Shown here: positions 2,348-59,893 of the stretch, in pieces
How positions within the stretch are numbered: position 1 is the stretch's first letter
Layout: the number at the start of each line of letters is the position of its first letter
Assembly: GCA_963820555.1 (NCBI GenBank)
Contig: CAWGAT010000047.1
Location: 33,982 to 97,981, forward strand
Direction: 5' to 3'
DNA length: 64,000 bases
Origin: Candidatus Bathyarchaeota archaeon
GTDB lineage: Archaea; Thermoproteota; Bathyarchaeia; TCS64
The notes under the pieces: model-generated
Told to the model about the DNA's origin: nothing
What the model saw: the letters and a program-made list of their open reading frames with translations, nothing else
Database searches by the model: none
Translations under genes and position numbers: made by a program

Positions 2348-3125
2348 TTACTTTGGTTTGTAGGCTTCGACGGTAACGCTCTTCACCTTGAAGTCGACGT
2401 CGTACTCGCTGGTGTCGTAGAAGGACTCCTTGAGTATCTTCGGCTTGTTGAAGCCAGCCGCCTCTATGTCCTTGAGGTACTCCTCCTCTGGTAGTGCGCC
2501 GGCGACGCAGCTTGCCCAGGAGTCGAGGTCTCTCCTGATCTCCTCGGGGATCTTGCCCTCGGTGACTATGTCGCTGACGGTTATCCTGCCCCCGGGCTTG
2601 AGGACGCGGTGGGCCTCGCGGAAGACCTTTGGCTTGTCAGGGCTGAGGTTGATGACGCAGTTGCTGATTATGGCGTCGACGGTGCCGTCCTCGACGGGCA
2701 TCTCCTCGATCTCGCCGAGGCGGAACTCGACGTTCTTGAAGCCGTACTCCTCCGCGGCCTCCTTCGCCCTCTTGATCATGGCCTCGTTCATGTCGACGCC
2801 GATTACCTTGCCCTTGGAGCCTACCTTCTTTGCGGCGAGGAAGACGTCTATACCTCCGCCTGAGCCGAGGTCGAGGACCGTCTCCCCCGGCTTGAGCCCC
2901 ACATAGGCGACGGGTGAGCCGCAGCCGAGGCCGAGTATCGCCTCCTGCGGGATCTCCTCAAGCTCCTTGACGTTATATCCAATCAGCTCCGCTGCCTGCT
3001 TTGGGTCTCCCCCTCCGCAGCAGCTGCCGCCGTCGCTGCCGCAGCCGCACCCGCTGCTTCTTCGACTCGGCTACCGCCGTGTATCGCTTCTTTACTGCTT
3101 CCTTGATCTCCTTCGCGCTCGCCAT
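2348..3125 (-). pseudogene. arsM: arsenite S-adenosylmethionine methyltransferase ArsM, apparently frameshifted near the N-terminus
   Basis: The C-terminal 184 aa match the ArsM core (LDLGSGGGIDVFLAAKKVG ... ISNCVINLS ... VLKPGGR). The in-frame upstream part carries the Cys-rich CGCGSDGGSCCGGG and GDPKQAAELIGY motifs. The N-terminus (MASAKEIKEAVKKRYTAVAES, start codon 3125..3123) is in another frame. A single-base indel near 3060-3075 joins them. Confidence 0.65.
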
Positions 3126-3217
3126 TATGGTCTGAGAGGCTTATCACAGCGACATATTTAAGAATATTGATATGAGTACTCGTAAACCTTTTGAGACCAC
3201 CCGCCTCGGCTCAACCT

Positions 3218-3785
3218 ATGAAGAAGACCTGCGGCTGGGGCACCGACGACCCCCTGATGACGGCTTACCACGACGAGGAGTGGGGGGTCCCCGTCCACGA
3301 CGACCGACTTCACTTCGAGTTCATAGTCCTCGAGGGCGTCCAGGCGGGACTCAGCTGGCGCACCGTCCTCCACAGGCGCGACGCGTACCGCGAGGCCTAC
3401 CACAACTTCGACCCCAAGAGGGTCGCTGCCTACACCGAGGCCGACGTGGAGAGGATCATGGACCACCCCGGCATCATCCGCAACCGCAGGAAGATAGAGG
3501 CAGCCATAAAGAACGCCCGCGCCTTCCTGGAGGTCCAGAAGGAGTTCGGCACATTCGACAGGTACATCTGGGGCTTCGTCGGGGGAAAGCAGAGGGTCAA
3601 CACCTACACGAGCTTCAAGGAGATGCCCGCGGAGACGGAGGAGAGCCGCGCCATGAGCAAGGACCTCAAGAAGACGGGGCTTCACCTTCGTCGGCCCAAC
3701 AATCTGCTACGCCTACATGCAGGCCGCTGGCCTGGTAAACGACCACCTGACAAAGTGCTACCGTTGGAAGGAGGTGCAGAAATGA
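3218..3785 (+). CDS. tag: DNA-3-methyladenine glycosylase I (Tag), with an apparent 1-nt frameshift near 3675
   Basis: CGWGTDDPLMTAYHDEEWGVP ... FEFIVLEGVQAGLSWRTVL is diagnostic for Tag. The C-terminus only reads correctly (GFTFVGPTICYAYMQAAGLVNDHLTKCYRWKEV*) after dropping one base in aagaagacgggg. The ORF track's 272 aa product runs on in the wrong frame. Confidence 0.75.
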
Positions 3786-4679
3786 AGCTATTCGACGAGT
3801 TACTCAGGCCCGTCCCCGAGCTTTTCTTCGAGAAGTCGGGGGAACCCGAGGACGCCGACTATCATACTCTTCGGGGCACCCCTCGACAGGACCGCCTCCT
3901 ACAGGGGCGGGAGCAGGTTCGCCCCCACCGCCATCAGGGAGGCGAGCCAGTACATGGAGAGCTACAGCGTCAGGACGGGCCTCGACTGGGAGGACCTGAA
4001 GCTCGTTGACATCGGTGACATCGCCGACGTAGGGGAGGTCGAGCCCGCCGTCGAGAACATCAGGAGGGTCGTCGAGGAGATCAAGGCGCTGGGTAAGCTC
4101 CCAGTTATGCTGGGGGGCGAGCACACGATCACCCTCGGCGCCCTCCGCGCCCTCCACCCCGAAGCCGTCGTCGTCTTCGACGCCCACCTCGACCTCAGGG
4201 ACACACTATTCGAGGAGAGGCTCTGCCACGCCACCTACCTGCGCAGGGCACATGAGGAACAGGGATTCAGGCTAGTAATCGTCGCGGCGCGCGCCCTCTC
4301 CGCGGAGGAGATAGAGTACGCCGAGGAGAAGGGTGTCACCGTCGTCACGGCGCAGGACGTGAAGAGGTTCGGCGTCGAACCCGTCCTCGGAATGATCAGA
4401 GACTCCCTAGAGGGCGTCGAGTCCGTCTACCTGAGCGTCGACATGGACGCCGTCGACCCCGCCGAGGCCCCCGCAGTGGGCAACCCCAGCCCAGAAGGCA
4501 TAGGAGTCACCCAGCTGCTCGACCTAATCGCCGGCGTCGTCGACAAGCGCCTCGTCGGCTTCGACCTGAACGAGGTCTCCCCCAGCTACGACTCGGGCTT
4601 AACCGCGATCCAGGCCGCCTACATCGTCCTCGAGACCCTCTACATGGCCGAGAGGGCACGACGCGGCTACCCCTCATAG
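3782..4679 (+). CDS. speB: agmatinase/arginase-family ureohydrolase, with an apparent 1-nt frameshift near 3856
   Basis: The downstream frame gives IILFGAPLDRTASYRGGSRFAPTAIREASQYMESYS ... GGEHTITLGA ... DAHLDLRD ... SVDMDAVDPAEAPAVGNPSPEGI ... GFDLNEVSP. These are the metal-binding motifs of the arginase family. The N-terminal 25 aa (MKLFDELLRPVPELFFEKSGEPEDAD) are in another frame. Confidence 0.75.
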
Positions 4680-4733
4680 CCCATATATCCCAGCGAGTCG
4701 AAGTCTACGCGATGGCGGCTCCCGACTTCAATA

Positions 4734-7281
4734 ATGGACGAGGGCGAGGAGGAGATAAGGCCGAAGGGGCGTCTGGCCCCCGAGAACCTGCCCACGAGCT
4801 ACCTCCTCAGCGCGGGCTACGACGGCGCGGAGCAGAAGGCGTACCTCCGCCTCTACGAGCCCGTGAGCCAGCAGGTCTACCTCTGGTACGACAACACGAG
4901 CCACCTCCCCTACTGCATAAGCAGGGAGCCCATCACGGAGCTGGAGAAGAACCAGCGCCTCCTCCGCCACGAGGGCTACTTCTTCATGGAGGAGGTCAAG
5001 AAACACGACCCCCTCGCAGACAAGGAGATCAAGGTCACAAAGGTCGTCGCCAAGGACCCCCTCAGCATCGGCGGAGGCAGGGGCCAGCCCATCAGGAGCA
5101 TCATCGGGGACAGCTGGGAGAGCCGAATCAGGTACTACCAGTGCTACATCTACGACCGCGAACTCATCACCGGGATGCCCTACAGGGTGGAGAACGGCAA
5201 CCTCGTCGACGCCGGCTACACCCTCGACGCGGAGACGGAGGCGAAGATCGACGCCATCCTGGAGAAGATCGAGCCCGAGTTCAGGGGCAACATGAAGGAG
5301 TGGACCCGCCTCCTCCAGTGCCCCGTCCCCAAGCTGCGGCGCGTCGCCGTCGACATCGAGGTCCGCCCAAGCGTCCAGAACAGGCTCCCCAACGCCGACG
5401 AGGCGACAGGAGCCCATAACCGCCGTCGGATTCTCAGCCAGCGACGGCTTGCGCAGGATAATCGTCCTCAACGACACCGGCCACGATGTACCGACACCCG
5501 GTCATCCTCGGCGCGGAGGTTAAGGTCTACACCGACGAGCGCGACATAATCAGGGACACCTTCAAGGTCCTAGACGAGTACCCCGTCGTCCTCACCTTCA
5601 ACGGTGACGACTTCGACTTCCGATTCCTACGCAACAGGGCGAAGAACCTCGGCATCCCCGACTCCGAGAACCCCATAGTCATGGGGCGCCGCTTCGCCTT
5701 CCTCAGAAACGGCGTCCACCTCGACCTCTACAAATTCTTCATGAACAGGAGCATACAGGGCTACGCCTTCGGCAACCGATACAGGGAGAACACCCTCAAC
5801 GAGATATCCAAGAGCCTCACTCAACCATGGAGAAGCTCGCAATCGGCGACATCATGGCGGCGAACATGCAGGACCTCGCCCAGTACTGCCTCAACGACTC
5901 CGACCTCACCTACCAGCTCACAGCCTTCAACCACGACCTCGCCATGAACCTCATAGTCCTCCTCACCCGCATCAGCAAGATGATCATGGAGGACGTCACC
6001 CGTAACGGCGTCAGCAGGTGGATACTCTCCCTCATGGAGTGGGAACACAGGCACCGGGGCTGGCTCATCCCCAACACGCAGGACATCCTCGACGTGAAGG
6101 GGCAGACCAGCACCACCAGCATCATCAAGGGGAAGAAGTACCAGGGCGCCATAGTCAGGGACCCGAAGCCCGGCGCCCACTTCGGCGTCATCGTCTGCGA
6201 CTTCGCCAGCCTCTACCCCAGCGCTATCAGGAACTGGAACCTAAGCTACGACACCATCCTCTGCAACCATCCCGAGTGCAGGGATAACCTTGTCCCCGGG
6301 ACCCCCCACTGGGTCTGCAAGAAGAACCGCGGCATGGCGAGCCTCATCATTGGAAGCCTTCGCGACCTCAGGGTCCAGTGGTACAAGCCCCGAAGCAGAG
6401 ACAAAGCCCTAAGCGTCGAGGAGCGCCAGTACTACGACGTCGTCACCCAGGCCCTCAAGGTCTTCCTGAACGCCAGCTATGGGGTCTTCGGCTCCGAGAG
6501 CTTTCCCCTCTACTGCCCCCCGCTGGCGGAGAGCACAGCAGCCGTCGGCCGCTACGCCATGACCAAGGCCGTCGATAAAAGCCAGCAACTAGGCATAGAG
6601 GTCATCTACGGCGACACGGACTCCGTCTTCCTCGAGAAGCCGTCGAAGGAGCAGATTGACGGCCTCGTTAACTGGGCCGACGCCGAGCTCGGCATCGACC
6701 TTGACGTCGACAAGCAGTACCGCTACGCCATATTCAGCAGCCGGAAGAAGAACTACCTCGGCGTCTACCCCGACGGCAAGCTCGACATAAAGGGGCTGAC
6801 GGGGAAGAAGCGGCACATCCCCCCCATCCTCAAGGACGCCTTCGTCAAACTCACCACCATCCTCAGCAACGTCGATGGGCCCGAGGAGTTCCCCGACGCC
6901 AAGGAGGAAATCAGGAACCTCGTCACCACCATCAACCACCGCCTCAAGAACCGCGAATTCGCCATAGAGGAGGTCGCCTTCAGCATGATGCTCGGCAAGG
7001 GCCTCGCAGGCTACGACACCACGCCCCAGCACGTCAAGGCGGGCAGGATGCTCGAGGAGCAGGGATACGAGCTCAAGGAGGGGGACATAATCAGCTACGT
7101 CGTCACAAAGGACGGCGTCAAGCCCGTCCAGATAGCGGGGAAGAAGGACGTCGACATAAACAAGATGGAGGAGTACCTCGAGGGCACATTCGAGCAGGTC
7201 CTCGACGCCCTCGACATGAGCTTCGACGAACTCGTCGGGCGCCCACGCCAGACGGGACTCGGCGCATTCTTCACACGCTAG
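4734..7281 (+). CDS. polB: family B DNA polymerase (archaeal PolB) split into three overlapping-frame pieces by frameshifts
   Basis: Piece 1 (4734..5549) has Exo I (VAVDIEV). Piece 2 (5486..5947) has Exo II (LTFNGDDFDFRFL). Piece 3 (5827..7281) has the polymerase motifs including YGDTDS. The pieces overlap in different frames, so this is indels rather than an intein or a natural split. At least two +1 shifts lie between 5400 and 5500 and one near 5825. Confidence 0.8.
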
Positions 7282-9298: not shown

Positions 9299-9775
9299 CC
9301 CACCCCGCCTTCATACAGACACGCGACCAGAAAGTATGCCGCCGCGGCGTTGAGCCTCAGCGAACTCGCCCACTTCGGCCCCGAGTACGCCAAGCAGATA
9401 CAGGCCAACTCACACGCGCTCGCAGGGGCGCTCGACGAGCAGGGCTTCAAGGTTGTGGGGAAGGAGAAGGGCTACACGAAGACGCATCAGGTGATAGTCA
9501 ATGTCCGTGACCTCGGGCCGCGTGCCATCGAGAAGAGGTTCAACGAGTCGAACATCCTCCTCCCCACGACTGTCCTCTGGGACGACCCCCCGAATTGCAG
9601 GGGCGGCCTCAGGATATCGGTGCAGGAGGCTACCCGCCAAGGGATGACTGAGGGGGAGATGAAGCAGGTGACGGCGTTGATCAGGAGGTCGGCAGACGGG
9701 GAGGACGCTGAGTCGATGAGGGGCGAGGTCGAGAGGTTCGTCGCGCCCTTCCGGAAGCTAAAGTACTGCTTCTGA
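9299..9775 (+). pseudogene. glyA: 3' remnant of serine hydroxymethyltransferase (glyA); the N-terminal ~290 codons are missing
   Basis: KYAAAALSLSELAHFGPEYAKQIQANSHALAGAL ... THQVIVNVRDLG ... GGLRISVQEATRQGMTEGEMKQVTALI matches only the C-terminal third of SHMT. asnS ends at 9232, so nothing upstream can be the N-terminal part. An AT-rich insert and an IS follow immediately. Confidence 0.7.
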
Positions 9776-13046: not shown

Positions 13047-13067
13047 TAAAGTTTATGGTGTTTTGGT

Positions 13068-15587: not shown

Positions 15588-15621
15588 TATGTTCTATAGA
15601 TTTAACTAGAAATAATATTTA

Positions 15622-17744: not shown

Positions 17745-19000
17745 ATGACGCTAGCCCCCTCGCCCACTTGGGCTCAATGCCACATCGAGGTTCACGAGGC
17801 GCCCGGTTGGCTCGACGACTGCTTCAGGTCGACTTTATGGACCAAGTTCCGGAGCGCTGACTCCGAGAGCTTCGCCAACGCAAACGACATAGCAGGGGAC
17901 TACGCAACAATGGCGGTCACTGAGGGCGACGTAGTCAACGGCTGCGGGTGGCAGAAGGACATCATTGGCCTCGCCCTAAACACGTCGAACTACCCGAGCC
18001 TACGAGTCCGCCTCAGGGGTAGGGGGACTTCACCTCAATATCAGATTGAGGTGGAGATGAGTGACAGCACAATCGATGCGTCAGGTTGGTGCGACGCCCC
18101 AACGGGGTTCGAGGCGAGGACCCTTAACCTCACCCCCGGCAAGACCGTCAAATACGTAAGACTCTACGCCCGATTCATCGACACCCCTCGCCTCAGCCCA
18201 GATCGACTACGACTACGCCGTCATTCAGGCCCAGCCGCCACTGATCCCATACGAACACCTGAGGTCGACGTGGAGCTCCAGCACACCATCGCTAGCTCCG
18301 GCTTCAGGGTCAGATGCTGGCACGACATCCTCCAGGGCGTCACCGCCCGCAGCTATACGATTCGAGGAGGGCTCAGGCATCAAGGCCTACGACCTGAGCG
18401 GCAACCGAGGGCCACGGAACCCTCGTCAACTCGCCCACATGGGTCGCAGGTGCAGCCACGGCGGAGGTCTCCAGTTCGTCGGCTCCTCTTCGCAGAGAGT
18501 CGACACAGGGTACCTCCCCACAATCCCAGCGTCAGGGGCCCTGAGCATCGCCTCTGGGTCAAGGGCATCGAGTGGGGCTACAGGCGTCATCGTCGGCTCA
18601 GGGAAGGTGCCTGGCGGGTCGTTCAACAGGCTCCAACTCAACTTCCAGTCAACGGATAAGGTCAGGCATCTACGTCAAGGACGACGCTGGCAACATCCGG
18701 CAGTACACATCGACAAGACGATCTGCGATGACACTTGGCACCACGTCGTCAGCCGTCGTGGACCCCGCCAACGACGTCGTCACCCTCTACGTGGACGGCA
18801 TATTCGACGGGCAGGCATCGGGAGCCCTCGGGGCAATCACCCTCGATGCCCTACGACTTCACATTGGGCTGCCTCCATAACGAGGCTGGCTACACGCAGC
18901 TCATGCGACATGCTTCCTCGACGAGGTGGCATTCTACGAGAAGGCTCTGACCTACGATGAGGTCCTGACATCTTCAGGAGGGATCCACCCTCGGGGATAA
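17745..19000 (+). pseudogene. frameshifted large tail-fibre or receptor-binding-like protein with a LamG/concanavalin-like domain
   Basis: Three overlapping frames (17745..18659, 18439..18960, 18572..18880) together encode DDTWHHVV ... VTLYVDGIFDGQASGA. The W-H-H-V ... L-Y-V-D-G pattern is typical of LamG domains. Confidence 0.35.
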
Positions 19001-19075
19001 GCGGGGCGTCCTGTGGCGCATGGGTGATGATCTACCTGGCCGCGGAGCCGGAGAGCCTGGTCTACAAGCTGATCA

Positions 19076-20500
19076 GTGGAAGGGTGCTCGAACGCGTACA
19101 TGGGCGGCGACCCCGATGGGCCCTGGATTGAGCTCAGCGGCGAGGACCAGAGCGAGATCGTCCACGAGAGGATCTGGAGCCGGGAGTTCACGAGCCCGAC
19201 CCAGATCAGCACCGTAGCGGGGTACGTCGTGGACGATGCCGTGGACGAGCTCTACCGGGACATCGACGCCACGAACAGGACGATAGTCAACAACTTCAGG
19301 AACGAGAACGCCTGGAGCGTCCTCGGCAAGCTGGCGGAGAGTGCATCCTTCGCAACCGGCGAGAGCGGCGCTCACTTCTTCGTGGACCCCGGCGGCTGCT
19401 TCCGGTTCCGGAAGTACGGCGCCTTCGCCTGCCCACACCATCATCTCGGACGGCAGCGACGGCTACCCGCCGAACATCATGGACATCGAGGCCACGGAGA
19501 GCATCAAGGGCTCGCCCAGCCTCGTCAACGACGTGAAGGTGGTGATCTTCGAGGAGGAGAACATACCTAGGGATCGAGGACGGTTGGACGGAGTGCGCCG
19601 GATGGCTGGAGCAGCCCGGACCCAACGGACTCGGCTATCCCCTAGAGCGAGGCAGTTGACAAGGTAAGGGGACTACGCCTCCGTCAAGTTCCAGACGACG
19701 AACCCGGGCCCAGTCTACAGGATGCGCCTCTCCTTCTCGGAGCAGGACCTAACCGGATTCGACTCGGTCAAATTCAGCCTCAAGTACGGGTCAGGGCTCA
19801 GCATCGACTCCTTCACGTTCCAGATAATGAAGGGGAGGCTTCGGAGCCGGCGACTACTATGAGATCACAGGCGATGTATCTCCCCCGGGAGCCGACGCCT
19901 GGCATGAGATAACGATCAACCTCGCCGATATGAGCAGGATCGGCAACCCAGGCAACATCGTTAACAACCTCGAGCTGAAGGCCGTACCACGTCCACCGAG
20001 ATCGGGATCGGCGGCTTCCTCATCGACCATCTAAGATTCATCCGCAGCGAGAAGTCGGGAAGCGCCTCAGACTCGGCGAGCCAGCTCACCTACGGGAAGC
20101 GGAGCCTCACCATCGTCGACAAGGGCATAACCAGCACAACCTACGCAGGCTACGTCGCCTCGAACATCGTCGCCAACCGAAAGAACCCAGTGGCCACACT
20201 CGGAGTAACGGTGCCTGGACGCGGTCAGCCCGGCTATAGACCACCCCAGAGCGTCACCGTGACGAGCCTCAAGGACGGGATAAGCTCAAGGGCCTTCCAG
20301 ATCGTGAAGGCTAGGCACAGGATACACAGCCGGGGAGGGCTACACCTGCGAACTTGACCTCGTCGCCGCCAAGACCGCGGGAAGCCCCCCGCTTACTCGG
20401 AGCTGGTCTGCCCGAGCCTCAACGATCTCCCAACTCTCCTCGGCGAGTGGAGGAGGCGGCTGCAGGGGGAGGCACTGAACAGCCTCAGGAGTGAGTGGAT
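19076..20500 (+). pseudogene. frameshifted tail-fibre or carbohydrate-binding-module-like protein(s)
   Basis: My own translation finds long open stretches in alternating frames, for example DYASVKFQTTNPGPVYRMRLSFSEQDLTGFDSVKFSLKYGSGLSIDSFTFQI and GDYYEITGDVSPPGADAWHEITINLADMSRIGNPGN. This is the beta-sandwich CBM-like composition seen in virus fibres. Confidence 0.3.
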
Positions 20501-20916
20501 ATGAAGAACGATGAAAAAGCATCCGAGGGATCCGAAGCGGATCCCCTACGGAACGAACGAAGGTAGTCGAGGGCCTTGAGAAGGGGGACCTCGTCGTCGT
20601 GAGGTGGACGGACGCGAGCGACCGGAAGGCGCCCCTGGAGGAGCACATCGGGGACCCGAGCATCTACTGCAAGGACTGGGGGATATACCTCGGCGTCACG
20701 GGCGCACGAGCGACGTTCATACTCATCGGGAAGGACATCGTCGAGGTCCACAACGAGTGGGGGGCGACCAGGATACCGCTGGAGCTCGTCGAGGAGGTGA
20801 TACGGTGTCCTACCCGAGAACAAGTCGTGAGAAGAATTCGGGAGATTCAGGTCCTCGGCGGAAGGGTGCGCCTCAGGAAGAGGAGGAGGGAGGTAAAGGT
20901 TGTTAGAGTGGCTTAA
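20501..20916 (+). CDS. hypothetical protein (frameshifted N-terminus)
   Basis: ATG at 20501, then a frame change into the 105 aa ORF 20599..20916 (RWTDASDRKAPLEEHIGDPSIYCKDWGIY ...). Confidence 0.25.
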
Positions 20917-20984
20917 GGAGAAGCTAACGAAGACGATGGTTCAGGCGGCGCCCGGAGGAGCGCCGCATAAGGGTAGTCGAGGAC

Positions 20985-21160
20985 GTGCCCAGCGACAGAT
21001 TCGTCCTACTAGTCGCACTCATGGTCATATTCTTCGCGGGTCTCATAGCCCTCGAGGTGGCGCACATGGTCGTCTTCGGCGCAGTGGAACGAGGCCGTCT
21101 TCAACGGCGTCATGCTGATCGTCGGCACCATCGTCGGCGCCGTCTGGGGGAGGAGCGAGG
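20985..21160 (+). CDS. small 2-TM membrane protein (holin-like topology), frameshifted
   Basis: FVLLVALMVIFFAGLIALEVAHMVVFGAVE, then after a frame change AVFNGVMLIVGTIVGAVWG. Two hydrophobic helices in ~60 aa. Confidence 0.25.
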
Positions 21161-21161
21161 C

Positions 21162-21850
21162 ATGATCAGCGCGAGGGTCAGGCCCCGCCGCTACGACTCC
21201 GAGCGGGGCTGCTACGTCTACGACGTCAGCATTCAGGACGAAGACCAAGATCACGGAGCGCACCGCTAAGGTGGCGGAGGCCTTCGGCCTAGGCATCGAC
21301 GAGGAGAGTGAGCAGTGCTCCTCAGGGGCTTCGAGCTCAGGCTGGTGGAGGGGGACATCGTCTACATAACCGGCGAGTCCGGATCCGGCAAGTCGGTGCT
21401 GCTCAGGGCCCTGCAGCGAGGACCTGGGAGACCGGGCCGTGGACATCGCCGAGGTCACGGTGGACGCCTCAAGCCCATCGTGGACACCGTCGGCTCCAGC
21501 TTCCCGGAGGCGCTGGGGCTCCTCAGCCGGGTGGGCCTCAACGACGCCTACCTGTTCCTCCGCAGGTACCACGAGCTCAGCGACGGGCAGAAGTACCGGT
21601 ACCGGATCGCCAGGATGGTCGACTCCGGCAAAAGGTTCTGGCTCGCCGACGAGTTCTGCATCGACCCTCGACAGCACCACGGCCAAAGTCGTCGCCTACA
21701 ACATACAGAAGCAGGCGAGCCACAGCGGAGCCACCCTGGTCGTGGCGACGAGCCACACCGACCTCGAGGAGGACCTGGCCCCCTCCGCCCTCATCAGGAA
21801 GGGCTGGGGCGACGAGGTAAAGGTCGAGTACAGGGAGAACAGGGAGGCAC
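21162..21850 (+). CDS. stand-alone ABC-type ATPase (Walker A, ABC signature, Walker B, H-loop), at least 3 frameshifts
   Basis: Walker A is ITGESGSGKSVLLRAL. The ABC signature LSDGQKYRYRIARMV is a variant of LSGGQ. Walker B is RFWLADEF. The D-loop/H-loop VVATSH appears in the next frame. Pieces are spread over ORFs 21315..21869 and 21439..22605. Confidence 0.5.
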
Positions 21851-21939
21851 CGGAGTGCACGGCCGATAAGAGGCATAACCATACCGAGAGGGCACGAAGG
21901 AGGACTACGCCCGGCTCAGCTAGCCTCCACTACAGGGAC

Positions 21940-22708
21940 AGCCGCCTACCCGTCCCGATGAAGATCTACGCCGCGCGCCGCGGCGACGAGCTTGTCGGCG
22001 TCATCGCCTACAGCTACCCCGGAGTCAACGCCCAGGGAGGAGGCTCGCCGTCGGCTAAACCGCCCCACCCTCGAGGAACTCAACAGCGACTGGGCCGTCA
22101 TAAGCCGCGTCATCGTCCACCCCAAGTACCGAACAACCGGCCTCGGCGCCCGACTCCTCCGCGAAACGCTGCCCCTAGTTGGGCGCCGCCACGTGGAGCT
22201 CATCGCGGTGATGGCGGAGTACAACCCCTTCGCCGAGCGAGCCGGCATGACCCTCATCCACCAATCAACCCCCGATCCCACCGTCACCGCCGCCATCAAA
22301 GCCCTCCGAACACTCGGCTTCGACCCCTTAACCCTAACAAGCCAAGCCCAGAACAAACGAACACTGGAATCCCTTTCCCCCGAGGACCTAGAGGAGGTCC
22401 GCCGGATCCTCCTAAGCGTACACAGCGTCTACTACAAGCGCATCGGCAGCACCGACAGCGCCTACACCCGCCGCCCAGAGATGAAAGCCTGGCTCAGCAA
22501 ACAGGGACCAGCCCGTCTCTCAGTGAGCCTCAAGGCCCTCGCCGTGCTCGGCCAATCAAAGGCCTACCTCTATTGGAGCAGCCAAAATCAAATCGAGGAG
22601 GGTGAAATTCCCAGCCACAGCTGTAAAAATATTTTTTTTCGCAAATACCCTCCTACTGGGAAATTCGAGTACCCCACTGGGAATTTGCCGGCCCAAAACG
22701 GGGGGTGA
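21940..22708 (+). CDS. GNAT-family N-acetyltransferase domain protein (frameshifted)
   Basis: ELVGVIAYSYPG (beta-strand before motif A), then in the next frame VISRVIVHPKYRTTGLGARLLRE, the canonical GNAT motif A (R/Q-x-x-G-x-G/A). Confidence 0.45.
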
Positions 22709-23356: not shown

Positions 23357-25088
23357 TTAGCACTCGGGGAGGATCACGTCGAGTAGGGCGTGTTTACCCT
23401 TTTTCACCTGCCGCAGGGCTCTGAGTAGGGCGGGCTTGACCTCGGAAGGATCCGTGATCTCCTCCCCGTAGCCACCGAAGGACTCGGAGAGCTTGGCGTA
23501 GTCGGGCTTCGGCTTCGCGTAGACGCCGTAGATCCTCCCGCTGCATATGGCGTGCCCCTTAGGGTAGTAGCGTGGGTGGTGCTTCATAGCGGCATAGCCC
23601 TGGTTATCGTATATCACTGTGAGGATGGGGATGGCGTACTCCTGGGCGAGGCCAAGGCAGGCGTGAACGGGATTGTAGTTGAAGCTTCCATCCCCCTCAA
23701 GGGCGATGACGGTCTTATCCGGGGCGGCGAGCTTTGCGCCGAGGGCGACGCCTAGACCTTGTCCAAGCCCCGTATGGGCGACGGGACCCGTGGCCTCGAG
23801 CTGCGACCCTGGCACGGTTCGGTGGCGCTCGATGTGTTCGAAAATCATCGTACTGTGGCTGATGGTCTCATGGACGAGAATCGTGTCTTTATCCACGACC
23901 TCGTCTATGCAGTGGCTGAGCCACAGTCGGGCTGATAGGACACTGGTCCTTTGTGGAGAGGGCTGCCTTCCTCCATTCCTCCCTGAGGCGTTTATGTTCC
24001 GCTCCCCAGCGCGTTAGCCGATCCTCCACCCGCTTGCCGAGGCCCCGCACCCTAAGTACTTCAGCAACGAGCGCGGGTAGGGCGATGCTCGAGTCGGCGG
24101 CTATTAGGAGGTCGGCGGGATAACCGTAGACAGGGTACTTCACCTGCAAGGGATCGAGGTCCAAGAAGACTATCTTGGCTTTGCTCCTATCGGTGATGCT
24201 GTTGGGTGGATACCATGGTGGCCACCCGTTTGCGTCGATGACAAGGATGAGGTCTGCGTCCGCGAGGTAATTACCCATACTGGGGCCCATGTGTAGTGGG
24301 TTATCGGTGGGGTAATTGGCATAGCCGGGTGTCTCGAAGACCGGCGCTCCGACCAACTCCGCCAGCTCGACTAGGGATGCGACCGCGCCCTGGTTTCTCC
24401 CGAGGTAACGGGTGTAGATTAGGGGGTTCTCCGCTTTCGCTAGCATCCCCGCCAACTTCCTCAGTGCCTCTGGGTCCGCCTGAACCCGCGAGGGCCTCGG
24501 GTTCGGGTAGGGCACCCTCATCTTCTCCTTCTTCTCGAAGAGTAACTCCCGGGATAGAGAGAGCATCACGGGCCCCTTGATGTCTGTAGAAGCAATGTCG
24601 AGGCCCCTAACCATCGTGGAGAGGATGTTAACGTTCGACTCGGGGGTGTCCACCCACTTCATATAGGGCTGGACGAGCCTCTGCTGCCCCCCGACCTCGG
24701 TGAACGAGAGGTAGTGGGGTCCGGGCGTCCCGCCATAGACCTCTTCGTCGTGGGTCCTCGCCTCACCGACGAGCAGCATGAGGGGTATCTGGTCGGTGTA
24801 CGCCGCCTTGAGCTCCATCGCGCCGTGGAGCATCCCCGTGAGGACGTGCGCCATGAGGACCTGAGGCCTCCCCGTCACCATGTAGTAGCCCTTAGCGAGA
24901 GAGACGGAGAGCCCCTCATGTCTCGTGTTCATGTAGAGGGGCTTCTTCCCCGCCTCGTTGTACTTCGCAAGGTACTCCCAGATTGGGACGAACTCCGTCC
25001 CAGGCGAGCTGAAGACATAGTCCACACCGTATTGGTGGAGAACTTCGACATAGCCCTCCGCCGCGCCCTCGACACTAATCTCTTTCAA
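23357..25088 (-). CDS. thiamine-pyrophosphate enzyme (acetolactate synthase large-subunit / sulfopyruvate decarboxylase-like), frameshift near 23890
   Basis: The N-terminal 399 aa hold the TPP-enzyme Pyr domain (GVDYVFSSPGTEF ... ) and the central domain. The C-terminal 179 aa, in a different frame, hold the TPP-binding motif ALEGDGSFNYNPVHACLGLAQEYAIPILTVIYDNQGY. Confidence 0.7.
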
Positions 25089-25148
25089 TATAGAGACCCC
25101 TAAGGCAACTGGTAGCCGAGGGGTTAAATCACTTCGTGGTAGGTTTGC

Positions 25149-26416: not shown

Positions 26417-28595
26417 CTAAGCTATGTCCATCGGAGGCTTGAGCTGGTCACGGATGCGCTTGTTCGTGTCCAGGTACCACTTCTCCATCTCTGGAGTTAT
26501 CGAGGGTACTATATCTGCCATAACCTTGTCGAAGTCCGCTGACGTGACCTTCTGCGTCTCGGGGTCCTTGCGGAGGGCGTTGATGGCTGCCTCGCGGCAT
26601 ATGGAGTCGATATCAGCCCCACTGAAGCCCTGCATCTTCTTCGCCAAGTCGTCTATCTTAACCTTCTCGAGCGGCATGTCCTTCGTCTTTATCTGAAGGA
26701 TCTTGAGCCGAGCTTCGTAATCTGGGGGCGGCACGTAGACACGTCTGTCGAATCTCCCAGGGCGGAGTACGGCGGGGTCGATCATATCGGGGCGGTTCGT
26801 CGCCGCGATGACGACTATGTTCTGGAGGCTGATCAGGCCGTCTATCTCGGTGAGAAGCTGGCTGATGACGCGCTCCGTGACGCGATTGTCGCCACCTCCC
26901 CCCCTCGAGGGGACGAGGGCGTCGAACTCGTCGAAGAAGATGATGCTAGGCGCGGCCATGCGGGCCTTCCTGAAGGTCTCCCGTATCGCCTTCTCGGACT
27001 CTCCGACCCACTTGCTGAATATCTCAGGGCCCCTGATACTGATGAAGTTAGCCTCAGACTCTGTGGCGACGGCCCGTGGCTAGGAGCGTCTTGCCGCAAC
27101 CTGGTGGGCCGTGTAGGAGAATGCCCTTGGGGGGCTGGATGCCGAGGCGCGTAAACCTCTCAGGGTTCTTGAGCGGCCACTCCACCGCCTCCTTTAAGGA
27201 CTGTTTGACCTCCTCCAATCCCCCCACCTCGTCCCAGTGGACGTTCGGAGTCTCAACGTAGACCTCGCGCATCGCCGTCGGGGTGACCTCCCTGAATGCC
27301 CCCATAACGTCATCGGTGGTTACGACCATCTGGTCTAGTACCTCGTGGGGTATCCTCTTCTGTTCTAGGTCGATCTTGGGGAGGTACCTGCGGAGCGCCT
27401 TCATCGCCGCTTCGCGGCTGAGTGCCTCGAGGTCCGCACCCGTGTAGCCGTGGGTGAATTCGGAGATCTTCTGTAGGTTGACGTCCTCAGCGAGGGGCAT
27501 GCCGCGTGTGTGTATCTGCAGGATCTCAAGGCGGCCCTCTCTGCTGGGGGTGGCGATCTCAATCTCCCTATCGAAGCGCCCGGGGCGGCGGAGCGCCTCG
27601 TCTATGGCCTCGGGCCTGTTCGTAGCACCGATGACTATGATGTGTCCCCTGCTCTTCAGCCCGTCCATGCTTGCGAGGAGCTGGGCGACGACGCGCCTCT
27701 CGACTTCGCCGGTGACCTCGCTCCTCTTCGGCGCGATGGCGTCTATCTCGTCTATGAATAGGATGCTGGGCGCGTTCTTCTCCGCGTCCTCGAACATCTT
27801 CCTGAGCCTGCCCTCGGACTCGCCGTAGAACTTGCTCATTATCTCGGGGCCGTTTATGGCGTAGAAGTTCGCGTCCGACTCGTTAGCGACGGCCCTGGCG
27901 AGGAGAGTCTTACCGCAGCCCGGCGGACCGTGGAGGAGTACACCCTTCGGGGGGTCGATGCCCAGCCTCTGGAATATCTCCGGGTGGCGGAGCGGAAGCT
28001 CAACCATCTCCCTGATGCGCCGGATCTCCTCGTTCAACCCACCAATGTCCTCATAGGTGGTCCTACTCGGCATCTCCATCTCAGGGACGGGCTCGCTCAG
28101 AATCTGGATCTCTGAAGTCGGCGAAATCTTCACTATGCCCGCGGGGCGGGTGTTGACCACCATGAAGGGAACTGAGTGGCCTAGCATCATGATTAGCAGT
28201 GTATCCCCTCGCGTCGCAGGCCTGTCGATGAGGCGGTCCTTAACGAAGCGGATGAAGTCGTTGTCTACACTGATCCTTATGTCGACGGGGGCGAGCTTCA
28301 CCGACACGGCGTACTCGGCTTCCGCCTTCTTCACCTGAACAAACTCGTTTATGCTGACGTTGCAGTTCTTGCGAATGAACCCGTCTATGCGAAGGAGACT
28401 GAGTCCCTGGTCCTCGGGGTAGGCTGGCCATGCCTTCGCCGCCGTGGATTTCTTCCCGACAATCTCCACGACGTCGCCTACGGTGACGCCTAGGGTCTTC
28501 ATCGTCTCGGAGTCCATCCGGGCTATGCTGCGCCCGACGTCCCTCTGCTGTTTCGCTTCGGCTACCTTCAACTGGACGCTGCTCAAAAGGTCCAC
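26417..28595 (-). CDS. cdc48: CDC48/VCP-like AAA+ ATPase (N domain plus two AAA domains), split by frameshifts near 27060 and 26960
   Basis: The 513 aa piece has the N domain, D1 Walker A ([20 protein letters not shown]) and Walker B ([14 protein letters not shown]), and the start of D2 ([15 protein letters not shown]). The 180 aa piece, in another frame, carries the D2 Walker B region [12 protein letters not shown], sensor/arginine finger and C-terminal helices. Confidence 0.8.
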
Positions 28596-37638: not shown

Positions 37639-39212
37639 ATGTACGACCTCATAATCAAAGGCGGTAGGATAGTGGACGGCGCCGGCAACCCATGGTACCC
37701 CGGGGACGTCGCAGTGACCAAGGGCAGGATCATCGCCGTCGGGAGGGCCGAGGGGGAAGCCCGGGAGACGATAGACGCGTCCGGCCTCGTCGTCTCCCCC
37801 GGCTTCATAGACGCTCACAGCCACGGTGACCTAGTCCTGATCTCGGAGCCAGAAGCAAAGATTAAGATTATGCAGGGCATTACGACCGAGGTCGTGGGTC
37901 AGGACGGCCTCGGCGAGGCCCCCCTCACAGATGAGAACGTCGATATGTGGCGCAGGTACCTCTCAGGGCTGAACGGAAACCCGGACATAGGATGGGAATG
38001 GAGAAGCCTCGGCGACTACCTCACCCGACTTGAAAACGCGAGACCATCCGTCAACGTCGCCTCACTCGTCGGCCACGGAAACATTCGCCTAGCCGCCATG
38101 GGTATGGAGAACAGAAAGCCCACACCCTCAGAACTCGACGAGATGAAGAAGCTCCTCGACGAGTCACTCCGCGAGGGCGCCATTGGCCTCAGCACCGGCC
38201 TCATCTACCCCCCCTGCGTCTACTCCGACGCGTTCGAGTTGACCGAGCTCTGCAGAGTCGTCGCGGCCCACCGCGGCGTCTTCGTGGTCCACATGAGGAA
38301 CGAGGGGGACAAGCTCCTCGACTCGATAGACGAGGTGGTCAACGTTGGACGCGACTCGGGTGCCTCCATCCACATCAGCCACTTCAAGTCGAACGGCAGG
38401 GCGAACTGGGGCAGAGCACCGCAGGCAATCGCTAGGGTGGAAGAGGCGAGGATGAGGCGGCGTTGACGTGACCTTCGACCAGTATCCATATACTGCCGGC
38501 AGCACCTTCCTCGGAAGCCTTCTCCCCCCATGGGCCCACGAGGGCGGCCTCGATAAGCTGCTGACCCGACTCAGGGACAGAGCAGACGAGGGCTAAGCTC
38601 GCCTCTTACCTCAACCACGAGGGGGACGAGGGAAGTCCCAACGAGTGGGACCGGATACTCATCACAAACGTCAGGACTATCCGTAACAAGCGCTTCGAGG
38701 GAAGGTATGTCTCACAGATAGCGGAGGAGCTCGGGAAGGGACCCGCGGAGACCGTCCTCGACCTCGTCCTAGAGGAGGAGAACTCGGTGACAATGGCGAC
38801 CTTCACCATGGATGAGGAGGATGTTAGGACCATAATGAGAAGCCCCCTAGGCATGGTCTGCACCGACGGCATAGTTCTCGGCAAACCCCATCCTAGGGCC
38901 TACGGTAGCTTCCCACGCGTCGCCGGCCGCTATGTTAGAGAGGGCGTCATACGGCTAGATGATGCGATAAGGAAGATGACCAGTTACACAGCGCAGACCC
39001 ACGGCTTCACAGACCGTGGCATACTTCGACCAGGTCTAGCCGCAGATATCACAATCTTTAATCCCGATAAGATCGAGGATACAGCAACCTTCGAAAATCC
39101 CATCCAGTACCCGAGAGGTATAGAATACGTTATCGTGAACGGCGTCGTCACCGTGGAACATGGTAAACACAACGGCAGTCGGGCGGGTAAAGTCCTACGC
39201 CGTCCCAGTTAA
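37639..39212 (+). CDS. N-acyl-D-amino-acid deacylase (D-aminoacylase) family amidohydrolase, split in three by two frameshifts (~38462 and ~38595)
   Basis: Piece 1: MYDLIIKGGRIVDGAG ... GFIDAHSHGD ... VHMRNEG. The middle piece read from the gap is DVTFDQYPYTAGSTFLGSLLPPW. The C-terminal piece 38787..39212 has TDGIVLGKPHPRAYGSFPRV ... IEYVIVNGVVTVEHG. Confidence 0.75.
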
Positions 39213-54165: not shown

Positions 54166-55024
54166 ATGATTCCCGGGAACGACCTTGGTGAGTGGGTGAA
54201 GAAGCTAGTCGAGGGTTTCATAGCCTCGCCTGAAAACTCCTTCAACGACATCGGCGAGCCCGCATGGGATGTACCCCTCGTCGGCTTCTCGAGCGGCGCC
54301 GATCCCCTCTACGACTTCTACAAGAAGGATATAGGGAGCTTCTACGTCTCACCGATCGAGTTCTTCAAGAACGCTCACCCCTCAGTGGAGGCGAAGCCCG
54401 AGGATCTTACCGTCATCAGCTGGGTCCTCCCCCAGACTAAGGCTACTAAATACGATCAGAGGAAGGAGACGAAGATGCCAAGTGAGAGATGGGCACGCGC
54501 GAGGATAATGGGCGAGGGTGTGAACGTCAAGCTAAGGAGATTCATGGCTAAAGAACTCGGGGAGTCCGGCTACCCTGCGGTGGCCCCGATGCTATCCCCT
54601 CTCTGGAGTGAGCACACGTCGAAGAAGTACCTCTTCGCCTCATCCTGGTCCGAGAGGCACGCCGCCTACGCAGCGGGGCTTGGTACATTCGGCCTGAGTG
54701 ACGGCCTAATCACCGCTAAGGGGAAGGCTCACAGGGTCGGCTCTGTGGTCGCGAAGATTACGATACCGCCGACCCCCCGCCCCTATACATGATCACCATG
54801 CCTACTGCCTCTGGCACGCCAAAGGAACGTGCGGTGCCTGCATGGGAAAGTGCCCCGCTGGGGCTATCTCCGAGAGAGGCCATGACAAGCAGAAGTGCAG
54901 TGACTACGTCGACACCACACACGCTTTTGTCGAGGAGAACTACCACTTCAAGGGTTATGGGTGCGGCTTCTGTCAGGTCGGTGTCCCCTGTGAGAGCAGG
55001 ATACCTGAGGGCATCGACCTCTGA
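54166..55024 (+). CDS. QueG-like (epoxyqueuosine-reductase-family) Fe-S protein, frameshift near 54790
   Basis: The 208 aa N-terminal piece is followed in another frame by CGACMGKCPAGAI ... YGCGFCQVGVPCE. This matches the paired cysteine motifs (C-x-x-C-x-x-x-CP and GCxxCQxxCP) of QueG-type proteins. Confidence 0.45.
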
Positions 55025-57398: not shown

Positions 57399-58703
57399 TT
57401 GGTTGTGCTTAGCTTCGACCGTGGGACGCTTCTAGTCGTGGATGATCAGGGCAAGGTGACGAGGTGCCGCGCTGGCGACTACTCGAGGGTCGTGGGGGAG
57501 CTTCGGGACGCGGGCGCTGAGTTCCGGGACGACGCCCTCAGGTCGCCTCCGACGGGGCTTCTCGCCTCACGATTCGAGGCGAGGGACTACCAGTCCGAGG
57601 CCGTCGAGAGCTGGGCGAAGGCGGGTTACCGGGGGATCGTCGTCCTCCCCACGGGCGCGGGCAAGACCGTGATGGCCATAAAGGCGATGGAGAGGCTGCA
57701 GGTCGCAACGCTCATCGTTGTACCAACCATCGTTTTGATGGAGCAGTGGAGGGAGACGCTTACTGAGGCGTTCGGCTCCGAGGTGGGCGCCCTCGGAGGT
57801 GGCTCGAGCGACGTGAAGCCTATAACGGTCGCCACCTACGACTCCGCCTCCCTCAGGGCGCGCGAGATTGGTGACAGATTCTCGCTTATAGTCTTCGATG
57901 AGGTCCACCACCTCCCGGCTATTAGTAACTCGCGAGCGGCTACATACTACCTGGCTCCGTACAGGCTCGGGCTCACGGCCACTCTCGGTCACGACGAGGA
58001 GGTGATAAGCGGGCTCGAGGAGCTGGTCGGAAAGGTCGTCTACGAGAAGGTCGTCGAGGAGCTGGCGGGGAGGCACCTCAGCGACTACACCGTGAAGACC
58101 GTGAACGTGTCCCTCGCCCCCGAGGAGAAGGCGGAGTATGAGAGGCAGTTCGCTGTCTACAAGGGCTTCCTGCAGCGGAGGGGTATCAAGATAAGGAGTG
58201 CCCGCGACTACCTGCTCTTCGTCAAGCGTAGCGGCGTGGACCCTGAGGCGAGGAGGGCGCTCATGGGTAGGAACGCGGCGATGGACATCGCTTTGAACAG
58301 CAGGAGCAAGGAGGAGTACCTCCGGGGGCTCCTCGTCGCCAACCCGAACGAGAAGACCATTATATTCACCCGCCACAACAAGCTCGTCTACAGGATAAGC
58401 AGGAGCCTACTCATCCCCGCCATCACCCACCAGACGGTCAGAGAGGAGAGAGAGGAGATACTCGACAGGTTCCGTAGGGGCGTCTATAGGAGGATAATCA
58501 CAAGCCAGGTCCTCGACGAGGGGATCGACGTCCCCGACGCCTCGGTGGCGGTGATACTCAGCGGCACAGGGAGCAGCCGGGAGTTCATCCAGCGCCTCGG
58601 CAGGGTTCTCAGGAAGAAGGAGGGGAAGCAGGCGACACTCTACGAGCTCGTGAGCTTCGGCACCGCAGAGACCCGGCTCAGCAGGAGGAGGAAGGAGGCT
58701 TGA
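57399..58703 (+). CDS. xpb: XPB/Rad25-type SF2 helicase
   Basis: ARDYQSEAVESW ... VVLPTGAGKT (motif I), DEVHH (motif II), TAT (motif III), and helicase C-terminal motifs. 434 aa is the archaeal XPB size. Confidence 0.8.
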   Translation: MVVLSFDRGTLLVVDDQGKVTRCRAGDYSRVVGELRDAGAEFRDDALRSPPTGLLASRFEARDYQSEAVESWAKAGYRGIVVLPTGAGKTVMAIKAMERLQVATLIVVPTIVLMEQWRETLTEAFGSEVGALGGGSSDVKPITVATYDSASLRAREIGDRFSLIVFDEVHHLPAISNSRAATYYLAPYRLGLTATLGHDEEVISGLEELVGKVVYEKVVEELAGRHLSDYTVKTVNVSLAPEEKAEYERQFAVYKGFLQRRGIKIRSARDYLLFVKRSGVDPEARRALMGRNAAMDIALNSRSKEEYLRGLLVANPNEKTIIFTRHNKLVYRISRSLLIPAITHQTVREEREEILDRFRRGVYRRIITSQVLDEGIDVPDASVAVILSGTGSSREFIQRLGRVLRKKEGKQATLYELVSFGTAETRLSRRRKEA

Positions 58704-59856
58704 TCCTCCCCCACGAGCTCATCAGGGTGAGGCGCACAAAGGCGGCGCTCACACCCCTCTTCGCGAACGAGGAGAAGCTTAGCCTCGCCAAGACCCTCAT
58801 CGCCGTCTACAGTGAGAACCGGGACAGGAAGAGGGCGGAGCTTAACGATGGCCTCGCGGTATGCGAGGAACTCGGCTACGACTTCAAGCTCGTGAGGGGC
58901 CTCTCAGCAGTGCTCGACTCGCGCTGCATCTTCGGGGCACGCTCCTTCGTACCGCCGATCAAGGCGCGTAGGCTGCTCTTCGAGGAGGCGGCGAGGAGGC
59001 CATCCATCTCGGAGAGGGACCGCGCGGAGATAATGGGGAAGGTGGCCGAGGGGCTCGGCGTCGCCTCTGCGGACCTGGATGAGAGCCTCTACGCCGACCT
59101 GCTCGACGAGCAGTACCTCATAGACTTCAAGGAGCCCGCGCCGGATGAGCTGCTCAAGCTCTACAACTTCGCCCTCGTCTCTGTGGTCCTCGCCTACTCC
59201 GTCCACATAGCGGTGGGCTACTCGGGGAAGAACGAGGGCCTCGAGAGGGCGGCGAAGAGCCTCGGGTGAGCCCGATGTCAGGGTCGGCTCCATTAGCGTC
59301 GACCTGAAACCCTCGAAGCAGGTGGGGCTCCGCGGGGGGAAGGTGGAGGCCCTCCTCGCCCGGCTCATCGAGTCGAAGGATTGGAGCCTGAGGGCCGACG
59401 TCGCGTATCCCCCACGCTACCACGAGACGAGGCCACTGGAGCTGAACAGGAGGACACACGGCGGGATGCTCAAGGCGGAGCCGGTAGAGGAGGAGACTAT
59501 CATCGAGATCAAGGCGCCGGTGAGGAAGAGCAGCTTCGGCGACATAATCGTCATCGACGACGTCGCCAACAGGCTTGGCCTCACCGACAAGGAGCTGCTG
59601 AGGAAGGTGGAGGCGGAGAAGGTCAGAGTATGTCCGACTCCCGGGCGTCCTAGTGACGCCGGAGAAGCTGGAGGCGCTTCGCACAGGTCTTGGGGAGGTG
59701 GAGGGGGACGACCTCGCCTCGTACAAGGCCTTCCTGAAGGGGCAGGGGTGCAAGAACCCGATCCCGGTGCTGGAGGCGCTGGGCTACTTCGTCGATGTGG
59801 ACCCGGAGACGCGTAAGCCGAGGGTGGTGAGGCTCCGCCGCGGAGCGTCAAGTTAA
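58700..59856 (+). CDS. bax1: Bax1 (XPB-associated nuclease, DUF790), at least 2 frameshifts
   Basis: Its start overlaps the xpb stop, matching the conserved XPB-Bax1 gene pair. The product is split across ORFs 58700..59269, 59322..59816 and 59653..59856. Confidence 0.6.
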
Positions 59857-59893
59857 TATCGCTGCGGGATTAAGGGGGTTCGGAAGATGCGGC

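Follow-up and report, generated by a model that had tools for sequence, protein, structure and literature searches.

Decaying genomes carry a mixture of nonsense mutations and deletions together with relaxed codon constraint, and their essential replication and RNA-processing genes are spared. Sites of programmed frameshifting are conserved among relatives and lie in a defined slippery or stop context. The textbook error profile of Nanopore sequencing consists of homopolymer deletions. A Nanopore-only consensus is known to retain frameshifting indels under approximately 40x coverage (PMC9262707), and in the MFD-LR pipeline, which consists of Flye --meta and one Medaka round, the authors checked their own MAGs for such errors (PMC12313526). 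Here, we analyzed a 64-kb stretch of a contig from a Candidatus Bathyarchaeota archaeon (64,000 nt, called the window below), in which single-base frame breaks had been predicted in many conserved genes.

Frameshift-aware protein-to-DNA alignment against relatives showed that 15 one-base corrections were required across ten conserved chromosomal genes, and 35 further frame breaks were found in four genes within a 3.9-kb tract (18174-22057), so the window contained 50 frameshifts in total versus 1 premature stop. This alignment, DNA alignments and a homology-free codon-usage frame track were used as three lines of evidence, and they agreed with each other. The broken frames are thus really present in the deposited sequence, no more than about 35 nt from where the original prediction had placed them, and its statement that the sites are not bound to homopolymers was also correct, as homopolymer runs at the 15 core sites reached a length of 3 at most. 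Sequencing or assembly indels and wholesale gene decay had been offered as two unranked explanations; the former is strongly supported by our analysis and the latter is not. We consider it very likely that the frame breaks are a consensus artefact of mixed-strain long-read metagenome assembly and not gene decay, and that the affected genes, polB, cdc48 and aCPSF1 included, are most probably intact in the organism itself. The neighboring asnS, fen, egsA, xpb, rtcA and GGR genes, which had been described as intact, were uninterrupted in the frameshift-aware alignment too. Most virus-like ORFs had been listed as broken, but all breaks of that kind were confined to the discrete tract at 18174-22057: no frame break was found in the tail-like ORFs (16212-17744) by the frame track or by L172, a contig of the same sequencing run that aligned without a gap before 18172, and for LamG codons 1-143 the frame track, L172 and homology all showed an unbroken frame. 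The frame track also hinted at further breaks at 42.4 and 43.6 kb, which were rejected because Pfam identified adjacent complete genes whose ORFs merely overlap.

The core sites were located one by one (genes on the plus strand unless stated). The arsM-like arsenite methyltransferase gene (2348..3125, minus strand) has one extra base at approximately 3059-3062 (GAAG[A]AGC), which falls in a Cys/Gly/Ser linker of variable length among relatives, and the corrected ArsM of 258 aa matched NF008823 over 3-262/272 with 335 bits against a 263-bit cutoff. In tag, encoding DNA-3-methyladenine glycosylase I (3218..3785), the +1 insertion is at 3674/3675 (AAG[AC]GG), where relatives read AAG-CGG or AAA-AGG; the corrected product of 188 aa matched TIGR00624 over 2-178/179. 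The agmatinase gene (3782..4679) has a +1 insertion at 3863/3864 (TAT[CA]TA), in a column with C or A in relatives, and its corrected product (298 aa) matched TIGR01230 over 3-275/275. For polB, encoding the family B DNA polymerase (4734..7281), at least three sites had been proposed and we counted four +1 insertions (5405/5406, 5497-5501, 5818/5819 and 5826/5827), along which the frame track moves from f3 to f2 and then to f1; the corrected PolB of 847 aa matched NF004417 over 31-854/858 with 1053 bits against a 780-bit cutoff.

Correction of the +1 insertion at 23924-23926 in the thiamine-pyrophosphate (TPP) enzyme gene (23357..25100, minus strand) gave 580 aa, as in L083, with NF006203 matched over 7-569/571. 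Two sites had been claimed for the gene of the CDC48 AAA ATPase (26417..28595, minus strand), but there is only one: the D2 Walker A region carries a +1 insertion at 27076-27078 (701/725 identity, one single-base insertion and no stop). The corrected CDC48 of 725 aa is again as long as in L083 and scored 1039 bits with TIGR01243 against an 803-bit cutoff. The gene of the aCPSF1 beta-CASP ribonuclease (30558..32484) is broken at 30796/30797 by a +1 insertion (GA[AG]CTT) where a relative reads GAG; the identity was 631/644, and the corrected 641 aa matched TIGR03675 over 2-630/631. The two sites predicted for the "D-aminoacylase," an Amidohydro_3 gene (37639..39212), were indeed found as +1 insertions at about 38455 and 38582, with 445/529 identity to L083, no stop and a corrected length of 523 aa. 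In the gene of the QueG-like Fe-S protein (54166..55024), the +1 insertion lies at 54789/54790 (ACA[T]GAT), and the likeness of the corrected 285-aa protein to QueG is weak (29 bits against a 200-bit cutoff). At least two sites were expected in the Bax1 (DUF790) nuclease gene (58700..59856), which lies downstream of the intact XPB gene, and two +1 insertions were located, at about 59264 (GGG[T]GAG; GGG or GGT in relatives) and about 59628 (AGA[G]TAT; AGA or AGG in relatives); the corrected Bax1 has 384 aa.

All 15 core breaks are 1-nt insertions private to the window, which are carried by 0 of the 10-14 aligned relatives; no lesion was inherited by related lineages, with 0 sites common to the window and any relative. 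The core insertion:deletion ratio of 15:0 would have a probability of about 3e-5 if both were equally likely. Aligned with L090 (4,898 nt, 83% identity), the window had just three gaps, which were the three frameshifting insertions. Deleting one base per core site restored ORFs of canonical length with zero in-frame stops, and the corrected core proteins were 84-98% identical to relatives when each gene was compared with its closest one. Profile analysis showed that 9/9 scanned corrected products matched their best profile in one single stretch. Almost the whole profile was covered by tag, agmatinase, ArsM, CDC48, the TPP enzyme, aCPSF1 and PolB, and all of these except the TPP enzyme (six products) were above curated cutoffs; Bax1 and the QueG-like protein gave partial model matches, and the amidohydrolase was outside the profile scan. 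Exact look-up of the ten corrected proteins in the protein collection returned no identical entry.

These results bear on whether the strain has recently lost polB, cdc48, aCPSF1 and other genes by real pseudogenisation through single-base insertions. In favor of such decay, the deposited sequence is the frame-disrupted one, and two IS elements (1045-2235 and 10232-11104) together with a truncated SHMT remnant (9350-9775) show some real gene disruption in the contig. However, the core events are insertions throughout, accompanied by neither nonsense mutations nor larger or multi-codon deletions, and polB takes four hits in 430 nt and still retains 95-98% amino-acid identity to relatives. No second copy of polB, cdc48 or aCPSF1 was found in the 64-kb window or in the examined syntenic stretches of relatives. 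In prokaryotic pseudogenes under neutral decay, substitutions exceed indels; fifty indels should be accompanied by random substitutions in the hundreds and by numerous stops, and only one stop is present. We therefore regard recent decay of the core genes as very unlikely. A dN/dS-type argument against decay is only weakly informative, because the window had mostly diverged from its relatives before any recent lesion.

To compare assembly types, we used six of the affected genes in four Flye-style/Nanopore contigs (three MFD Nanopore MAGs and the ENA contig_139313) and ten short-read assemblies. The four Flye-style contigs had 10 private frameshifts in 7,776 aa, of which 9/10 were +1 insertions and all were at different positions, while the ten short-read assemblies had 0 frameshifts in 16,627 aa (p about 1e-5 versus the Flye-style set). 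The genes are thus broken at other positions in every compared long-read MAG and in no short-read one, which is again not what real decay would give. Judged from relatives and contig statistics, the window would itself come from a long-read-only assembly of Flye/Medaka-on-Nanopore style, as in the Microflora Danica MAGs.

The dense error tract (18174..22057, plus strand) contains 35 frameshifts over 3.9 kb (22 one-base insertions, 4 two-base insertions and 9 one-base deletions), which is a frameshift density about 18 times that elsewhere, with 30 nt inserted versus 9 deleted; 23/28 single-base insertions of the tract were outside any run. The LamG-domain gene (17745..20501, plus strand; reference length, 913 aa) reads through 143 intact codons and is then broken from 18174 on by 22 breaks (14 one-base insertions, 3 two-base insertions and 5 one-base deletions) plus one in-frame stop. 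Its corrected protein had 801/914 identity to P0293, and a homologue search with it found no near-identical fragment in the same run but just an approximately 910-aa family. Two small ORFs follow on the plus strand (20501..21162), one of 138 aa with a one-base deletion at about 20559 and one of 87 aa with one-base insertions at about 20951 and 21078, and both also adjoin the LamG gene in L169. The last gene is an ABC-ATPase/GNAT fusion (21162..22708, plus strand; about 485 aa in relatives) with ten breaks at 21231-22057, 387/482 identity to P0173 and no stop, and the PHROG profile coordinates run consecutively over its ORF fragments. A comparison of the GNAT part with viral contigs gave zero relatives. 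The corrected proteins of the tract were 80-88% identical to relatives.

The Logan contigs of run ERR10755944 that carry window proteins provided an independent k-mer assembly for comparison. L170 differed from the window by 3 SNPs in 1,303 nt and L171 by 1 SNP in 945 nt, both without indels, which points to co-occurring strains in the sample. Contig L172, which was traced via exact look-up of a neighboring ORF, showed zero differences over 12888-16279 (3.4 kb) and 1.1% thereafter, and from 18170 on it was 8.8% divergent with 16 gaps, placed exactly at the frame breaks of the window. The onset of the tract thus coincides with the onset of this 8.8% divergence between the window and a haplotype that co-occurs in the run. 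L172 reads 426 LamG codons unbroken across 13 breaks of the window. In the tract, L172 represents a different haplotype (8.8% divergent), and it demonstrates an intact allele in the sample rather than intactness of the window's own allele. Exact look-up of the intact genes beside the core frameshift sites found no Logan copy of any of them.

The tract might also be the only truly decayed part, as a degenerating variable or mobile element of a minority strain, made up of an adhesin-like LamG gene and ABC/GNAT, with the core breaks being artefacts. Its neighbors are a low-GC island and tail-like genes, this part of the contig varies between co-occurring strains, it has deletions beside insertions and one stop, and its window-private substitutions at second codon positions number 13 versus 1 in L169. 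But insertions still prevail by about 3:1, 35 indels stand against 1 stop, the borders are sharp with intact sequence on either side within one gene, the same run contains an intact allele, and ABC/GNAT, a common gene of Bathyarchaeia chromosomes, has kept 80% identity. The window-private substitutions of the tract are also still enriched at third positions (13:13:35 by codon position), which indicates that the allele evolved under selection, although a very recent lesion would leave such a bias unchanged. We consider decay limited to the tract very unlikely, and a consensus artefact is preferred for the tract as well.

The artefact may arise when one consensus is called from piled-up reads of haplotypes that differ slightly. 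The consensus would at times retain both SNP alleles side by side, so that one base is added and the frame is shifted. Where the haplotypes are about 9% apart, as from LamG to ABC/GNAT, or where the assembled haplotype is thinly covered, polishing would largely fail and could leave indels at about 9 per kb. In region 1, 6/6 insertions were doublets of two alleles that are both found among relatives at one column; the chance expectation for such tandem-allele doublets was 37% (p = 0.003), a moderate significance for a test framed after viewing the data. About half of the private insertions of other long-read MAGs had the same pattern. Going by the alleles of relatives, retention of both alleles is therefore the mechanism that we would propose for the +1 insertions. 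The error profile of non-homopolymer +1 insertions departs from the textbook Nanopore profile, and the missing homopolymer focus points to a consensus failure driven by strains or coverage instead.

Since removal of one base gives perfect products, biological recoding was considered, in which genuine insertions would be bypassed by programmed +1 frameshifting, transcriptional slippage or RNA editing. Nothing further supports it: the sites had no common motif (maximum 0.64 bits per column, n=15), no slippery X XXY YYZ heptamer and no run >3, none of them was conserved even in relatives at 96% protein identity, and the positions differ in every long-read MAG. So recoding has a practically negligible probability. 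A variant in which the +1 insertions are genuine to the strain, favor synonymous polymorphic positions and are tolerated via frameshift-tolerant translation or insertional editing, with essential genes like polB, cdc48 and aCPSF1 remaining expressed, is extremely improbable. A methylation-motif or slippery-site cause was rejected as well, as no motif is common to the sites.

With the consensus artefact as the preferred reading, the biological weight of the broken frames is small, and the organism very probably has normal genes. The problem extends to public MAGs, including GTDB species representatives, with frameshifted essential genes, e.g., the MFD MAGs L005, L008 and L030. Such contigs inflate pseudogene counts, split protein families and lower completeness or coding density. 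This type of error is easily overlooked, because non-homopolymer +1 insertions that cluster at strain divergence escape homopolymer-aware checks. Where frame switches are dense on one strand and the canonical products can be restored, this could serve as an assembly-quality signal for filtering.

Compared with known systems, the window resembles pseudogene-rich genomes, such as those of Mycobacterium leprae and recent host-restricted symbionts, in that many conserved genes are frameshifted, but none of the traits of decaying genomes (the mixture of nonsense mutations and deletions, relaxed constraint and spared essential genes) was seen in it. Programmed +1 frameshifting, as in bacterial prfB/RF2, likewise involves one extra base relative to the frame of the product, but unlike programmed sites, those of the window are unique to one assembly and have no common motif. 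The indel frameshifts of Nanopore-only assemblies and MAGs detected by IDEEL-type tests (PMC9262707, PMC12313526) are closer, as they are also single-base consensus indels that split conserved genes and are private to an assembly. They are denser at poor coverage or consensus quality, which may hold for the window too, and such lesions recurred here in other MAGs from the same kind of pipeline. The classical account of these indels stresses homopolymers, whereas the events here are mostly non-homopolymer +1 insertions, many of them at strain-polymorphic columns. As in consensus errors from collapsed strains (microdiversity), co-occurring haplotypes were demonstrated in the same run. The doublets found here, compared with the alleles of relatives, resemble two alleles in tandem, and to our knowledge a signature of both alleles retained as an insertion has no formal description. 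The error density in the window tracks the divergence between haplotypes, from 0% to 1.1% and then to 8.8%.

The frame breaks in conserved genes were checked by three independent approaches, namely a codon-usage frame track whose training set was the unbroken genes of the window, alignment of its DNA with that of syntenic relatives, and a purpose-written frameshift-aware protein-to-DNA alignment. The syntenic relatives were genome contigs for 2.3-9.3 kb, contigs with at least 90% identical egsA for 23-39 and 52-54.7 kb, and metagenome contigs for 50-60.5 kb. At every claimed gene the frame track switched on the same strand with uninterrupted coding signal, and the protein-to-DNA alignment gave the same sites as the DNA alignments, which placed the indels to the base. 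In total, 15 events were located across ten genes, and deletion of one base per site gave ORFs of canonical length (in brackets): arsM at ~3060 (258 aa), tag at 3674 (188 aa), agmatinase at 3864 (298 aa), polB at 5405, ~5500, 5819 and 5826 (847 aa), the TPP enzyme at 23924 (580 aa), cdc48 at 27077 (725 aa), aCPSF1 at 30796 (641 aa), the Amidohydro_3 amidohydrolase at 38455 and 38582 (523 aa), a QueG-like gene at 54790 (285 aa), and bax1 at 59264 and 59628 (384 aa). The three approaches agreed, and the original observation of single-base breaks in these genes was borne out with minor corrections; one correction sufficed for cdc48, where two sites had been proposed, and the neighbours named as intact were found intact. 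Extra breaks had been suspected at 42.4 and 43.6 kb, where ORFs overlap, but were rejected, as these are complete adjacent genes. In the arsM-like methyltransferase, the Cys/Gly/Ser-rich linker at the N-terminus (3000-3125, minus strand) is of variable length, and close relatives differ there by as many as ~20 codons. An NCBIfam scan covered nine corrected products (the amidohydrolase was left out); tag, agmatinase, ArsM, CDC48, TPP enzyme, aCPSF1 and PolB each had a single near end-to-end match to the best model, which for all of these except the TPP enzyme exceeded the curated cutoff, and Bax1 and QueG-like had partial matches well below cutoff.

Each of the 15 core events added a single base to the window that none of the 10-14 relatives compared has, and in the 4.9-kb alignment to one relative (L090, 83% identity) the three frameshifting insertions were the only gaps. 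Neither a shared motif nor a slippery heptamer was found at the break sites, and the sites are conserved in none of the relatives, which contradicts recoding of the breaks. Real gene decay, the second of the two interpretations offered originally, is contradicted by the 15:0 ratio of insertions to deletions in core genes, by the absence of larger deletions, and by several breaks lying within single essential genes whose products are still 95-98% conserved. Moreover, all corrected alignments together held one in-frame stop (in the LamG-domain gene described below) against 50 frameshifts.

The GC content of the window is 57%, and its housekeeping genes are archaeal. A single 109,283-bp NCBI/ENA contig accounts for the ten intact window proteins that the public protein collection contains, and the closest polB relatives were all Candidatus Bathyarchaeia MAGs (at most 96% protein and 87-92% nucleotide identity), so the window is a piece of a metagenome-assembled contig. 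Three window proteins recurred in an independent assembly of ENA run ERR10755944, on Logan contigs. Two of these differed from the window by 3 substitutions (L170, 1,303 bp) and 1 substitution (L171, 945 bp) with no indels, which means that closely related strains co-occur in the sample; the third (L172, 6,137 bp) spans 12888-19031.

Several other features were seen. A 33% GC island (14000-16000) holds an ORF (14775-15587, minus strand) whose 270-aa product is membrane-like and matches no Pfam family, next to an HTH and nucleotidyltransferase (MNT-like) gene at 13068-13655; it is identical in L172, so it is no assembly chimera, and is probably foreign or mobile DNA. A serine hydroxymethyltransferase C-terminal remnant (9350-9775, profile positions 300-399 of 399) lies 64 nt past asnS and adjoins a DDE transposase (10232-11104); relatives are ~3 kb longer in the asnS-to-remnant interval, which comes from a real IS-associated deletion or else from a join in the assembly. 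At 1045-2235 (minus strand) there is another IS-type transposase (DDE_5, 396 aa), apparently intact. The 29-kb segment from ~22950 to ~52290 is inverted relative to contig L083, in which TPP/99-aa adjoins S17e. Across 52.29 kb the window is collinear with L089, which makes the arrangement a lineage-variable one and not a misassembly. A 441-aa ORF at 61992-63317 (plus strand) has a strong coding signal and no Pfam match.

Most virus-like ORFs had also been thought broken, but the reference proteins found by homology confined the breaks to one tract, 18174-22057. The ORFs at 16.2-17.7 kb, with weak PHROG matches to tail genes (tail assembly chaperone, Neck1, tape-measure), showed no frame breaks by the frame track or by comparison with L172. 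Within the tract there were 22 events in a LamG-domain gene (913 aa, first 143 codons clean), 1 in a 138-aa ORF, 2 in an 87-aa ORF and 10 in a gene for an ABC-ATPase/GNAT fusion that is common on Bathyarchaeia chromosomes. The tract holds 35 breaks in 3.9 kb (22 one-base insertions, 4 two-base insertions and 9 one-base deletions), whereas the coding sequence assessed elsewhere has 15 in ~30 kb. That the sites are not homopolymer-bound was confirmed, because the longest run touching any core site was 3 and 23 of 28 single insertions in the tract sat outside runs. The order of the four genes is also kept in another relative, L169. The LamG family has ~70 homologues, of which the few named are mostly from Bathyarchaeia and one is annotated Candidatus Desulfaltia. 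We regard 16212-22708 as a conserved cluster without assigned function rather than an obvious provirus.

L172 matched the window without a difference as far as 16279, diverged by 1.1% from there to 18170, and beyond this by 8.8%, with 16 gaps coinciding with window frame breaks. Over the first 426 LamG codons L172 had no frameshifts or stops, while the window needed 13 corrections. Three-way comparison with L169 assigned 64 substitutions, 10 inserted bases and 3 deleted bases to the window alone, versus 2 private substitutions for L172. A real decaying element limited to the tract could be argued from its deletions, its one stop and the extra second-position changes; insertions still prevail 3:1, though, the boundaries are sharp and fall within one gene, the third-position bias persists and the same run holds an intact allele, all of which make this unlikely. 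The window-private substitutions fell 13:13:35 by codon position (27 synonymous versus 19 non-synonymous codons), and this third-position enrichment suggests that the window allele is a real, selected haplotype with superimposed indels. The tract begins exactly where the window and the co-occurring haplotype diverge sharply, and at this point the two are too different for a clean consensus. The mosaic divergence (0% for 3.4 kb, 1.1%, then 8.8% in the LamG gene) suggests that this gene recombines or is hypervariable among the strains that co-occur.

The inserted base at a core site and the base beside it were usually the two alleles that relatives have at one column, typically synonymous: GC[GA]CAG at 5405 (relatives GCA or GCG), AAG[AC]GG at 3674 (CGG or AGG), CT[CA]CTC at 5819 (CTC or CTA), GGG[T]GAG at 59264 (GGG or GGT) and AGA[G]TAT at 59628 (AGA or AGG). 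Such doublets occurred at 6/6 sites in the 2.3-9.3 kb region against 37% by chance over all possible insertions (p = 0.003, of moderate significance, by a test devised after the data were seen), and the pattern recurred at roughly half of the private insertions of other long-read MAGs. A plausible mechanism from these comparisons is that the consensus step at times keeps both alleles of a strain SNP, adding one base; the insertion-only bias, non-homopolymer context and local clustering (four polB sites in 430 nt) would then follow. Thin coverage of the haplotype that was assembled may contribute equally well.

Six reference proteins (arsM, tag, agmatinase, polB, flavodoxin-like and asnS) were aligned frameshift-aware to every close relative. 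The four Flye-style contigs, three from Microflora Danica (MFD) Nanopore MAGs and one from ENA, had 2-3 private frameshifts each (10 in 7,776 aa); 9/10 were +1 insertions, at positions unlike one another's and the window's. The ten short-read assemblies (megahit, SPAdes, JGI, UBA, RBG, SPRUCE) had none in 16,627 aa for the same proteins, a split with a chance probability of ~1e-5. This comparison is decisive for technology versus biology: the breaks depend on assembly type, and decay would require a polB pseudogene in five lineages, solely where long-read assembled. Thus, with the insertion bias and few stops, the original alternative of sequencing or assembly artefact stands and wholesale decay falls, and we are highly confident that the frame breaks are an assembly artefact and no real biological feature.

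The four Flye-style contigs, CAVYLP010000005.1 (L030), CAVYVF010000022.1 (L008) and CAWACK010000021.1 (L005) from MFD and ERZ25039459 contig_139313 (L002) from ENA, belong to public long-read MAGs, some of which represent GTDB species, and their private +1 frameshifts hit polB, agmatinase, arsM and tag. Such breaks therefore span the catalogue, beyond the contig of the window. The MFD-LR pipeline used Flye --meta --nano-hq and one Medaka round without short-read polishing, and its authors checked their own catalogue for Nanopore-associated errors (PMC12313526); leftover frameshifting indels below ~40x coverage are documented for Nanopore-only consensus (PMC9262707).
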